A stretch of 8,025 nt of DNA from a virus (Duplodnaviria > Heunggongvirae > Uroviricota > Caudoviricetes). Shown in pieces: positions 2,596-4,378 of this stretch (positions are counted from its first letter, which is position 1; each line of letters starts with the position of its first letter). Where the stretch lies: IMG/VR virus record IMGVR_UViG_2585427729_000009, positions 1 to 8,025 of that record; one strand, written 5' to 3'. The notes beneath the pieces were generated by a model. That model saw only the letters and a list, made by a program, of their open reading frames with translations. It was not told the DNA's origin and ran no database searches. The position numbers and the translations under genes were made by a program.

Positions 2596-2752
2596 CTGGA
2601 TTCTCTTGTCAGTTAGCTTTGGTGGTGTGTGTGAGTCGTAGTCCTGAACGAAAACACCCCCGATTGGCTCATTTGCAGCTAATCCGGATTCGCACTTCCG
2701 GCCAATGCTTCGTTTCGTATCACACACCCCAAAGCCTTCTGCTTTGAATGCT

Positions 2753-2783
2753 GCCCTTCTTCAGGGCTTAATTTTTAAGAGCA
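2753..2783 (-). promoter_or_regulatory. nutL: nutL (boxA + boxB) N-utilisation site
   Basis: rc(2753..2767)=GCCCTGAAGAAGGGC, which is lambda nutL boxB. The boxA-like element rc(2774..2782) is TGCTCTTAA. Lies 158 nt upstream of the N start, as in lambda. Confidence 0.85.
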
Positions 2784-2822
2784 TCACCTTCATGGTGGTT
2801 AGTGCGTCCTGCTGATGGCTAA

Positions 2823-2851
2823 ATAGTACGATTTGTACTTTATTGAGTCAA
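2823..2851 (-). promoter_or_regulatory. pL early leftward promoter
   Basis: Minus strand reads TTGACT (rc 2846..2851), 17-nt spacer, TACTAT (rc 2823..2828), then TTAGCCATCAGCAGGACGCAC, which aligns with the lambda pL transcript start region. The hexamers and spacer differ from lambda. Confidence 0.65.
2825..2839. promoter_or_regulatory. Putative operator OL1 (perfect inverted repeat AGTAC-N5-GTACT)
   Basis: agtacgatttgtact overlaps the pL -10 and spacer; same 15-bp pattern as sites in the cI-cro intergenic region. Confidence 0.5.
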
Positions 2852-2864
2852 TACAAAATGTTCT
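2850..2864. promoter_or_regulatory. Putative operator OL2
   Basis: aatacaaaatgttct fits the a-TAC-N5-GT pattern and overlaps the pL -35. Confidence 0.35.
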
Positions 2865-2882
2865 AAATATAATTGGTTTTTT

Positions 2883-2897
2883 ATAACGCTTTGTATT
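2883..2897. promoter_or_regulatory. Putative operator OL3
   Basis: ataacgctttgtatt fits the AC-N5-GTA-tt pattern; its spacer gcttt resembles the gctct spacer of the OR3 candidate. Confidence 0.3.
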
Positions 2898-2916
2898 TAG
2901 TGGGTTTATATTTTGG

Positions 2917-2945
2917 AAAAAAAAAACCCCGACACTAAGGTCGGG
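2917..2945 (-). terminator. Intrinsic terminator immediately downstream of cI
   Basis: Plus strand has A10 (2917..2926), stem CCCGAC (2928..2933), loop actaag, GTCGGG (2940..2945). On the minus strand this is a GC hairpin followed by T10, about 33 nt after the cI stop (2978..2980). Confidence 0.7.
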
Positions 2946-2977
2946 TTATTGTTGTGTGCTTTAGAGTGGTGAGGCTG

Positions 2978-3637
2978 TTAACTAAATGTCTCTTCAGGCC
3001 ACTGGCTGGCGATAACTTTCCCTACTACGGAACAGCTATCATTGCATGGAATCATTGGATATTGCGGGTTTAGTGGCTGTAGGAACACCTGACCGCTATC
3101 CCTGATCAGTTTCTTGAAGGTAAACTCGTCACCACCAAGTCTGGCTATGCAGAAATCACCTGGCTCAACAGCCTGCTCAGGGTCAACGAGAATTAACATC
3201 CCGTCAGGAAAGCTTGGCTTGGATCCTGTTGGCGCGGTCATGGAATTACCTTCAACTTCAAGCCAGAACGCACAATCACTGGCTTTTTTGGTTGTGCTGA
3301 CCCATCTCTCCGCATCACCTTTGGTAAAGGTTCTAAGCTCAGGCGAGAACATCCCGGCCTGAACATGAGAAAAAACAGGGTACTCATATTGTTTTTTAAC
3401 GGGGGCAGATGAGTATTCGCCAACAGGTGAAAATGTACCGTCGTGGTTGAATGAGACGTTATCAATACCAAGGTATTTAAACACCACACCAATCTCGTCA
3501 AGAGATGGATGACGAGATCCGCGCAACCAGTGACCAATTCCACCCTGCGTCATACCAAGCTCTTCAGCTAACTTCTCTTGAGTTATGCCGAGCTCTTTCA
3601 TTCTGGATCTAGCCAGTTCATACCATTTCATTTTCAT
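2978..3637 (-). CDS. cI: CI-type immunity repressor; lambda-like C-terminal dimerisation/autocleavage (S24 peptidase) domain with a non-lambda N-terminal HTH (XRE-type) domain
   Basis: C-terminal part ...[39 protein letters not shown]...[12 protein letters not shown] matches lambda CI. N-terminal part [44 protein letters not shown]... does not. Start chosen at Met22 of the track ORF (rc 3635..3637) from HTH spacing; Met24 (3631) or the ORF start (3700) are alternatives. Confidence 0.85.
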
Positions 3638-3646
3638 ACCCTTATT

Positions 3647-3661
3647 ATTACGCTCTGTACT
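3647..3661. promoter_or_regulatory. Putative operator OR3
   Basis: attacgctctgtact (a-TAC-N5-GTACT), next to the cI start and overlapping the presumed pRM region. Confidence 0.4.
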
Positions 3662-3672
3662 AAAACCATCCA

Positions 3673-3687
3673 TGCACAAGATGTATT
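3673..3687. promoter_or_regulatory. Putative operator OR2
   Basis: tgcacaagatgtatt shares the AC-N5-GTA-tt core with the other candidate sites. Confidence 0.35.
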
Positions 3688-3694
3688 TTTTTGT

Positions 3695-3723
3695 TTGCAT
3701 TCTAAAAGTACATATCGTATTAT
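3695..3723 (+). promoter_or_regulatory. pR early rightward promoter (candidate)
   Basis: TTGCAT (3695..3700), 17-nt spacer, TATTAT (3718..3723), about 27 nt upstream of the cro ATG, which has a GGAGGG Shine-Dalgarno at 3741..3746. Confidence 0.5.
3707..3721. promoter_or_regulatory. Putative operator OR1
   Basis: agtacatatcgtatt matches the minus-strand reading of OL1 (AGTACAAATCGTACT) at 13 of 15 positions and overlaps the pR spacer and -10, as OL1 overlaps pL. Confidence 0.5.
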
Positions 3724-3749
3724 TGTTTCATGGTTACTATGGAGGGCAT

Positions 3750-3965
3750 ATGAGCAACCTACGAAAATATCGAGAGTCACTGAATATCTCTCAAACAACA
3801 CTTGCTAAGGCAGTTGGATGCACACAGGGAGCTATCGGACATTGGGAATCTGGTCGTCGCTTCCCAGACCTTAAAACATGCCGTGCTCTTGTTGAGTGCC
3901 TAAACAAGTTAGGCGCAAAAGTCAGTCTTGATGACGTGTTCCCGCCGGAACACAAAGCCGCTTAA
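3750..3965 (+). CDS. cro: Cro-like repressor (71 aa, HTH XRE-type; not lambda Cro)
   Basis: MSNLRKYRESLNISQTTLAKAVGCTQGAIGHWESGRRFPDLK..., with start ATG 3750..3752 after a strong SD. The track ORF from 3585 is an upstream extension. Divergent from cI and followed by nutR, as for lambda cro. Confidence 0.85.
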   Translation: MSNLRKYRESLNISQTTLAKAVGCTQGAIGHWESGRRFPDLKTCRALVECLNKLGAKVSLDDVFPPEHKAA

Positions 3966-3973
3966 GACATTCC

Positions 3974-4005
3974 CGCTCTTACACATCCCAGCCCTGAAAA
4001 AGGGC
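3974..4005 (+). promoter_or_regulatory. nutR: nutR (boxA CGCTCTTAC + boxB GCCCTGAAAAAGGGC); tR1 region follows
   Basis: Exact boxA at 3974..3982 and boxB hairpin at 3991..4005; the sequence on to the cII start matches my memory of the lambda tR1 region. Confidence 0.9.
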
Positions 4006-4084
4006 ATCAAATTAAACCACACCTATGGTGTATGCATTTATTTGCATACATTCAATCAATTGTTATCTAAGGAAATACTTACAT

Positions 4085-4378
4085 ATGGTTCGTGCAAACA
4101 AACGCAACGAGGCTCTACGAATCGAGAGTGCGTTGCTTAACAAAATCGCAATGCTTGGAACTGAGAAGACAGCGGAAGCTGTGGGAGTTGATAAGTCGCA
4201 GATCAGCAGGTGGAAGAGAGACTGGATTCCAAAGTTCTCAATGCTGCTTGCTGTTCTTGAATGGGGGGTCGTTGACGACGACATGGCTCGATTGGCGCGA
4301 CAAGTTGCTGCGATTCTCACCAATAAAAAACGCCCGGCGGCAACCGAGCGTTCTGAACAAATCCAGATGGAGTTCTGA
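4085..4378 (+). CDS. cII: CII transcriptional activator (97 aa)
   Basis: MVRANKRNEALRIESALLNKIAMLGTEKTAEAVGVDKSQISRWKRDWIPKFSMLLAVLEWGVVDDDMARLARQVAAILTNKKRPAATERSEQIQMEF. Start at 4085 after TAAGGAAATACTTACAT; the track ORF from 4025 is an upstream extension. Confidence 0.93.
   Translation: MVRANKRNEALRIESALLNKIAMLGTEKTAEAVGVDKSQISRWKRDWIPKFSMLLAVLEWGVVDDDMARLARQVAAILTNKKRPAATERSEQIQMEF
4094..4107 (-). promoter_or_regulatory. CII-binding site of pRE (TTGC-N6-TTGC) overlapping the cII 5' end
   Basis: rc(4094..4107)=TTGCGTTTGTTTGC, the direct-repeat CII recognition element; the pRE -10 would lie just downstream on the minus strand, around 4070..4080. Confidence 0.55.

Follow-up and report, generated by a model that had tools for sequence, protein, structure and literature searches.

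Three palindromes between cI and cro of a lambdoid prophage correspond to the annotated operators of the VT2-Sakai immunity type

Three palindromic sites lie between the divergent cI and cro genes in the 8,025-nucleotide stretch of DNA analyzed here (hereafter, the window). Judging from sequence, they are very likely (probability about 0.9) OR3, OR2, and OR1 of a lambdoid immunity module of the VT2-Sakai (Sp5) type, i.e., operators for cI and Cro. The sites are not new, having been annotated or predicted before as operators of this immunity type, which is very common in E. coli prophages: the module was matched in 1266 of 5426 complete E. coli genomes (768 carry at least 80% of it). In the first-pass annotation, three 15-mers had been picked out by eye and likened to an OR1-OR2-OR3 array, with centers 26 and 34 bp apart in a 112-bp divergent region. 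The 15-mers were read directly at the positions given for them and form the cores of 17-bp sites (Table 1). Their centers fall at 3654, 3680, and 3714, which agrees with both spacings, and the gap is 112 nt long (3638-3749), from the cI ATG at 3637 on the minus strand to the cro ATG at 3750. The tripartite reading is supported by the gene setting, by overlap with the predicted pR and pL, by a second trio of sites at pL, and by prior annotation.

All six sites are 17-bp imperfect palindromes of the common form (T/A)A(G/T)TAC-N5-GTA(C/T)T(T/A). The center of OR3 is 17 nt from the cI ATG, and its cI-proximal arm overlaps a hexamer resembling the -10 element of pRM. OR2 is centered 43 nt from the same ATG and has a weak cI-proximal arm, with GCAC in place of xTAC. 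OR1 overlaps the spacer and the -10 element of pR. The trio at pL was recovered by a motif search in the interval 2800..2900, which the earlier annotation had suggested as a place to look. Its centers are at 2832, 2857, and 2890, and the 15-bp core of OL1 is a perfect palindrome. A further candidate site at 3697-3711 was dismissed as an overlap artifact of OR1.

Table 1. Operators, promoter elements, and genes of the immunity region, with orthologous operators of AP005153 and VT2-Sakai (PMC10742460); positions are those of the window unless stated otherwise
Feature	Position	Strand	Sequence or elements	Position in AP005153	VT2-Sakai sequence
OR3	3646..3662	.	TATTACGCTCTGTACTA; core attacgctctgtact at 3647-3661	43457-43473	TATTACGCTCTGTACTG
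OR2	3672..3688	.	ATGCACAAGATGTATTT; core tgcacaagatgtatt at 3673-3687	43483-43499	ATGCACAATGTGTATTT
OR1	3706..3722	.	AAGTACATATCGTATTA; core agtacatatcgtatt at 3707-3721	43515-43531	AAGTACATATTGTATTT
OL1	2824..2840	.	TAGTACGATTTGTACTT; overlaps pL -10 and spacer		TAGTACGATATGTACTT
OL2	2849..2865	.	CAATACAAAATGTTCTA; overlaps pL -35 by 3 bp		CAATACAATTTGTTCTA
OL3	2882..2898	.	TATAACGCTTTGTATTT; motif and matrix match		TACAACGCTTTGTATTT
pR (predicted)	3694..3723	+	TTTGCA-18-TATTAT (or TTGCAT-17-TATTAT); consensus scan		
pL (predicted)	2823..2851	-	TTGACT-17-TACTAT, toward N; consensus scan		
pRM -10 (putative)	3642..3650	-	overlapping TAATAA hexamers, 6-7 nt upstream of cI ATG		
Terminator after cI (intrinsic)	2919..2945	-	hairpin CCCGACCTTAGTGTCGGG (2928-2945), then T-run		
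T7 tract	3686..3692	.	between OR2 and pR -35		
cI repressor	2978..3637	-	219 aa; Peptidase_S24 and N-terminal HTH_3; recognition helix TQGGIGHW		
Cro	3750..3965	+	71 aa; HTH_3; recognition helix TQGAIGHW		

The window covers a lambdoid early region, in which N (minus strand, lambda-type, N36), cI, cro, cII, O, and P were assigned by Pfam in the lambda order. Three related palindromes thus occupy the gap between a divergent LexA/S24-type cI and cro in an N-cI-cro-cII-O-P region, and a second set is found at pL. The DNA-binding domains of cI and Cro are 35% identical, and their recognition helices are nearly the same, as expected if the two compete for the same sites. The repressor matches the C-terminal domain of lambda cI (PDB 3bdn, 8gmu) at ~98% identity from residue 84 on, and it keeps the Ala94-Gly95 cleavage site, Ser132, and Lys175.

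The identity of the module was established by comparison with phage genomes. Positions 2720-4100 of the window are 99% identical to E. coli phage isolates (vB_EcoP-720R6, Louie, and Dewey among others). The segment from cI to cro (2978-3965) is 93% identical to the Stx1-converting phage AP005153, to Stx2 phage II (AP005154), to Nil2 and 2851, and to the PA phages, a series that Yin et al. equate with the Sakai Stx2a prophage. In AP005153, the corresponding gap carries three 17-bp features labeled “putative operator” as well as one “putative major rightward promoter” and one “putative maintenance promoter for CI,” and three more operators are annotated at pL. All six are orthologous to the window sites, and the two promoter features coincide with the window pR and pRM elements. 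The window sites likewise match OR1-3 and OL1-3 of VT2-Sakai as tabulated in Table S1 of PMC10742460. The repressor is identical to the Stx1-phage protein at 212 of 219 residues (seven differ) and Cro at 70 of 71, with no change in the helix-turn-helix of either, so that near-identical proteins with identical reading helices are found together with six orthologous sites.

The six 17-bp sites stand at the same relative positions in phages of the VT2-Sakai type, and all arms of the 15-bp cores but one are identical. The base changes that separate the window from this type (ATATC vs. ATATT in OR1, AAGAT vs. AATGT in OR2, GATTT vs. GATAT in OL1, AAAAT vs. AATTT in OL2, and TATAAC vs. TACAAC in OL3) are confined to the site centers and to edge or degenerate arm positions. 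The OR3-OR2 spacing of 26 bp and the OL spacings of 25 and 33 bp are shared, whereas OR2 and OR1 are 34 bp apart in the window and 32 bp apart in the VT2-Sakai type. The distance from OL to OR also differs, being 0.9 kb in the window and ~2.3 kb in the VT2-Sakai type, because in the window no genes lie between cI and OL. The backbone of the window is lambda/434-like, with a lambda-type N and nut sites, and no stx is found within the window. Given the identical recognition helices and operator arms, we infer that the window prophage and phages of the VT2-Sakai type are homoimmune. A literature search for binding, footprint, or transcription-start data on the cognate VT2-Sakai/Sp5 cI or Cro found none, and the sole experiment found on these operator sequences used lambda CI at micromolar concentrations.

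Since the 15-mers were chosen by eye in an AT-rich gap, they could be functionless chance resemblances in AT-rich intergenic DNA, a worry that the first-pass annotation itself had raised. The motif was therefore counted against shuffled sequence, as had been proposed there. The bare core TAC-N5-GTA occurs four times in the 8025 bp of the window where 0.83 occurrences are expected, and three of the four are inside the two regulatory gaps. The longer form AKTAC-N5-GTAYT, with at most one mismatch, gave 10 strand-hits against 1.18 expected, and none of 200 shuffles reached this count. Five sites in the OL and OR gaps (2825-2897 and 3647-3721) account for eight of these strand-hits; the other two are single-mismatch matches in coding DNA, at 1039 and 1306, and speak for chance. 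A symmetrized 17-bp matrix was built from the six published VT2-Sakai operators, not from the window, and its top six among ~8000 window positions are exactly the six sites (2824, 3706, 2849, 3646, 2882, and 3672), with scores from 20.2, for OL1, to 10.85. When AT-rich sequence was simulated with the composition of the two gaps, at least three hits at the OR2 threshold came up with a probability of 0.0005. OR2 is the weakest of the six, with two mismatches to the degenerate motif and a score of 10.85 against 9.6 for the best background position. This score is barely above background, and the case for OR2 is made by its position and conservation, not by the in-window statistics.

Conservation was measured among close relatives in 84 loci, which comprise 31 distinct sequences of OR and 36 of OL. 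A Cro-based scan of viral contigs had returned relatives with 99-100% identical Cro only, a set suited to footprinting and not to depth. Among the close loci, 6 of 60 arm columns (ten positions per site) are variable, compared with 11 of 30 columns in the centers (five per site) and 61 of the 129 remaining columns. The arms differ significantly from the other columns (P = 2×10−7, Fisher’s exact test) and from the centers (P = 0.004). The former test is conservative, because the other class contains conserved start codons and ribosome-binding sites.

Depth was provided by a diverged set of 18 lineages, namely g341c, ST64T, Erwinia Midgardsormr38, Vibrio H8, Klebsiella phi10.1, Enterobacter ENT1, mEp021, two Pseudomonas phages, and nine enterobacterial prophages of other genera. 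Their cI N-terminal domains are ~40-55% identical to that of the window, and their cI-cro gaps cannot be aligned with it. Nevertheless, 17 of the 18 carry xTAC-N5-GTAx sites at 16-18, 42-44, and 74-77 nt from the cI start, when alternative ATGs are allowed. The exception, mEp021, has a 43% identical N-terminal domain and lacks both an adjacent cro and the three-site layout, and it was set aside as support. In the same 17 lineages, the middle site combines a good cro-proximal arm with a degenerate cI-proximal arm (xCAC, xGAC, or worse). With the arms selectively conserved in 84 loci, the same three positions filled in 17 of 18 diverged lineages, the observed count reached in none of 200 shuffles, and three or more hits rare in simulated AT-rich sequence, the worry about chance is dispelled to the extent that sequence analysis allows, and we consider such an origin of the three sites extremely unlikely.

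The positions of the promoters bear on how the sites may be used. The claim that the last site overlaps the -10 element and spacer of pR agrees with the pR found by consensus scan, whose predicted start is near 3730; for pL, a start near 2816 is predicted. The edge of OR2 is 6 bp upstream of the pR -35 element, and OR2 therefore has no overlap with pR. The same scan of the window did not detect pRM, as expected of a weak promoter that depends on an activator. The minus-strand context of the putative pRM -10 element is CGTAATAATAAGGGTATG, with TAATAA inside the cI-proximal arm of OR3, and the candidate -35 element, TGGATG around 3667-3672, is poor and adjoins OR2. Counted from the A of the cI ATG as +1, OR3 would extend from about -9 to -25 and OR2 from about -35 to -51. 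This placement of OR2 and OR3 relative to pRM is close to the geometry of lambda. Several diverged relatives share with the window a -10-like hexamer at this offset from the cI ATG; in phage g341c it is a perfect TATAAT with the A of the ATG at +1. From these offsets we infer that pRM starts no more than ~2 nt away from the first base of the cI ATG (3637), which would make the cI mRNA leaderless or nearly so. The TAATAA hexamer that the first-pass annotation pointed to beside the cI ATG is present, and the leaderless start proposed there has gained support short of proof. Downstream of cI, a strong terminator separates the pRM transcript from OL and pL.

The spacing between sites is rigid in some intervals and free in others. 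OR3 and OR2 are 26 bp apart in 84 of 84 close loci, and OL1 and OL2 are 25 bp apart in 78 of 78, since each pair straddles the -10 and -35 elements of a leftward promoter (pRM and pL, respectively). OL2 and OL3 are separated by 33 or 34 bp. The OR2-OR1 interval is 33 bp in 57 close loci, 32 bp in 16, 34 bp in 10 (the window included), and 35 bp in one, and this drift is due to a T5-T8 tract of variable length at 3686-3692. The variable distance simply separates pR from pRM. The OL sites are laid out as a direct copy of OR, with no mirror image.

Many of these features are familiar from lambda, where cI and cro, again divergent, flank three imperfect palindromes of 17 bp and a further three lie at pL; there OR1 is on pR, OR3 on the pRM -10 element, and OR2 near -42/-43 of pRM, as is predicted for the window. 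In lambda the cI mRNA has no leader, and that of the window probably has none either. The near identity of the repressors in the C-terminal domain does not extend to DNA binding: the N-terminal domain of the window cI is HTH_3/434-like, shorter than and unrelated in sequence to that of lambda, and the window Cro is an HTH_3 protein without the lambda-Cro fold. The operator consensus differs in the two phages, being TATCACCGC in lambda and (T/A)A(G/T)TAC in the window. OR1 and OR2 are 24 bp apart in lambda and 34 bp apart in the window, where OR2 is free of the pR -35 element, and the lambda OL is a mirror image of its OR, unlike the direct copy described above.

A switch of the following kind would be consistent with this arrangement. 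Dimers of cI and Cro would read each site through their nearly identical helix-turn-helix recognition helices. Repressor at OR1 would occlude the -10 element and spacer and thereby block pR. At OR2, ~43 bp upstream of the cI ATG and next to the weak pRM -35 element, it would most likely activate pRM as in lambda, and would also aid the occupancy of OR1. At OR3, it would cover the pRM -10 element, so that cI synthesis would be shut off at high repressor levels. Cro, at the same sites, would shut pRM and later turn down pR, and OL1-OL3 (2824-2898) would control pL likewise. Cooperativity is likely, given how closely the C-terminal domain resembles that of lambda cI. As this domain is essentially that of lambda, the repressor is expected to dimerize, to cooperate in pairs, to loop the ~0.9 kb between OL and OR, and to cleave itself at Ala94-Gly95 when stimulated by RecA, all as in lambda. 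Binding itself and the order of affinities among the sites are likewise predicted.

This scheme gives OR2 a role, which could be disputed. OR2 could be an unoccupied degenerate remnant, with OR1 and OR3 the only functional sites and no OR2-dependent activation of pRM. Its two mismatches and lowest score of the six could be explained in this way, as could its lack of overlap with the pR -35 element, and the annotators of g341c marked just two repressor-binding sites in the homologous gap. A remnant would not be expected, however, to persist as a half-strong site (a good GTAxx arm and a degenerate xCAC-like arm) whose distance from OR3 is exactly 26 bp in every one of the 84 close loci and in 17 of the 18 diverged lineages, nor to keep its arms conserved and its center variable. 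Moreover, at about -43 from the cI ATG it occupies the place that OR2 has with respect to pRM in lambda. The design in lambda is a weak site that cooperativity fills, and the cooperativity domain here is lambda’s. Built-in weakness at just this position argues that OR2 is functional and filled with help, and its being a mere remnant is very unlikely.

The sites could also be true operators wired by another logic. Here the cooperative pairs would be OR2-OR3 (26 bp) and OL1-OL2 (25 bp), not OR1-OR2, and pRM would be activated and autorepressed at nearly equal repressor levels, which would leave repressor low and induction easy, as reported for the Stx phages 933W and BAA2326. This alternative bears on nothing but the circuit logic, and under it the sites would still be cI and Cro operators. 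It could account for the fixed OR3-OR2 and OL1-OL2 spacings beside an OR2-OR1 interval that drifts from 32 to 35 bp via the T tract, and for the direct-copy layout of OL. Near-equal occupancy of OR2 and OR3 has been described in two Stx phages (PMC5977221), and the present immunity type is carried by Sakai-type Stx2a phages. The drift amounts to ~100 degrees of helical phase and is not phase-locked, so lambda-style cooperativity between OR1 and OR2 is not assured. On the other hand, promoter geometry is the simpler explanation of the fixed 25-26 bp spacings, and 34 bp is the 24 bp of lambda plus about one helical turn, which makes same-face cooperativity through a lambda-type C-terminal domain still plausible. 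We therefore regard the OR2-OR3 pairing as unlikely and favor the lambda-like use of OR1 and OR2 described above.

Related operators have been proposed in more distant phages. The Salmonella phages epsilon34 and g341c, with the predicted operator WTACRAWWTGTAT, and the phages L and ST64T have repressors of the same N-terminal domain family as the window cI, at ~54% identity; their predicted operators share the TAC-N5-GTA core, and the three sites lie as far from the cI start as in the window. The epsilon34 operator was proposed by Villafane et al., who also noted that its repressor is related to those of L, VT2-Sa, and Nil2. In g341c, two “putative repressor-binding site” features are annotated, at the outer two positions; like those of the window, the published sites of epsilon34 and g341c are predictions. 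The base before TAC differs with the recognition helix: it gives ATAC in phages with the helix TKGAVSHW, and GTAC or TTAC in the window, with TQGGIGHW. Phages with the former helix are therefore probably of another immunity specificity than the window. A scan of genomes for the family with a three-sequence alignment retrieved only lineages with TKGAV(S/N)HW helices, and the link between helix residue and operator base is thus drawn from few independent events.

In a broader and more speculative reading, the window would be one member of a large repressor/operator family, undescribed as a family, that extends over Escherichia, Salmonella, Erwinia, Klebsiella, Vibrio, Pseudomonas, and others. 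Its layout would be rigid, with one OR2 arm degenerate throughout, OL as a direct copy of OR, and operator centers ~17, 43, and 75 nt from a cI start that is probably leaderless; only the OR2-OR1 distance (32-35 bp) would be free to drift. We hold this reading tentatively and think it rather unlikely in this full form. If it is true, then either a lambda-type C-terminal domain cooperates over an extra helical turn without strict phasing, or the switch uses OR2-OR3 pairing, unlike lambda. Since a lambda C-terminal domain is here joined to an unusual OR1-OR2 spacing of 32-35 bp, the spacing tolerance of lambda-type cooperativity could be probed cheaply on these natural variants.

The VT2-Sakai immunity type controls the induction of Sakai-type Stx2a prophages, and matches to it turn up in roughly one complete E. 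coli genome in four. Annotation, and the prediction of which prophages are homoimmune, therefore benefit from a correct operator map. That map is already in GenBank annotation and in published tables, and the window adds nothing conceptually new to it.

The pairing of two HTH_3 regulators on shared operators also has precedents. In 434 and P22, as in the window, both regulators are of the HTH_3 type, and their recognition helices are related; repressor and Cro share the same palindromic operators. Those operators are 14 bp long in 434 and 18 bp in P22, with consensus sequences other than that of the window, and P22 c2 is the nearest characterized solved relative of the window Cro.

The base that precedes TAC in the operator arms tracks residue 2 of the repressor's recognition helix, as judged by comparing diverged relatives with the window operators (3646-3722). 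Arms reading GTAC or TTAC accompany repressors with the helix T-Q-G-x-(I/V/L)-x-H-W, which are found in the window, ST64T, a Klebsiella phage and two Pseudomonas phages; the Vibrio repressor, with the helix SQSAIAHW, is grouped with this set. ATAC arms accompany T-K-G-A-V-(S/N)-H-W repressors in g341c, Erwinia, Enterobacter and nine enterobacterial prophages, and since these Lys-type lineages are mutually related, the correlation represents few independent events.

The two operator groups were compared in their layout. From left to right, the spacings are 25 and 33 bp in OL (2824-2898) and 26 and 34 bp in OR (3646-3722). The OL arrangement is a direct copy of that of OR, with pL sitting where the cI maintenance promoter pRM sits in OR, whereas in lambda OL is a mirror image of OR. 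Such a direct copy hints at an origin of OL by duplication of OR. Neither rexA/rexB nor any other gene was observed between cI and OL (2898-2978), and because this interval holds a terminator alone, the OL-OR distance is just ~0.9 kb, compared with 1.6-2.4 kb in the Stx-phage relatives. Among the 84 near-identical relatives, a homopolymer T tract varies from T5 to T8, and the OR2-OR1 spacing changes with it, ranging between 32 and 35 bp, whereas the OR3-OR2 spacing is constant at 26 bp despite these changes. Part of the variation in tract length could be homopolymer assembly error.

The C-terminal domain of cI (residues 84-218; gene at 2978-3637, minus strand) shares ~98% identity with its lambda cI counterpart (3bdn, 8gmu). 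The window cI is a domain mosaic, which points to recombination inside the linker region of repressor genes. For Cro (3750-3965), the nearest solved structure is PDB 28tn (E 2e-16, ~50% identical over 69 residues), an 82-aa protein whose entry is named “lambda repressor-like protein.”

The nut sites of the window are of the lambda type, and they agree with the lambda-type N. The boxB of nutL was also picked up by the terminator scan, as a hairpin on the plus strand. The flanking lambda-type nut sites and N place the borders of the swapped immunity module at ~2780 and ~3970, and the module is thus bounded in the same way as in the classical imm substitution.

Coordinates of features in and around the immunity module
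Feature	Position	Strand	Remark
293-aa ORF	1394-2275	minus	directly downstream of N
nutL boxB GCCCTGAAGAAGGGC	2753-2767	minus	lambda-type
Terminator	2919-2945	minus	sole element between cI and OL
Homopolymer T tract	3686-3692		T7 in the window
nutR boxA CGCTCTTAC	3974-3982	plus	read from sequence; lambda-type
nutR boxB GCCCTGAAAAAGGGC	3991-4005	plus	read from sequence; lambda-type

A Pfam search with the 293-aa ORF returned no domain, and the ORF matches phrog_12139 (unknown function) over its full length. A match to Nun-like transcription termination factors (phrog_5632; E 1.6e-4) covers the final 19 residues of the ORF product and the C-terminus of those factors, and a “Nun C-terminal peptide-containing protein” is one of the features of the phage 434 record beneath its match to the window. 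HK022 Nun is much smaller than the ORF product, which may act in exclusion or in termination.
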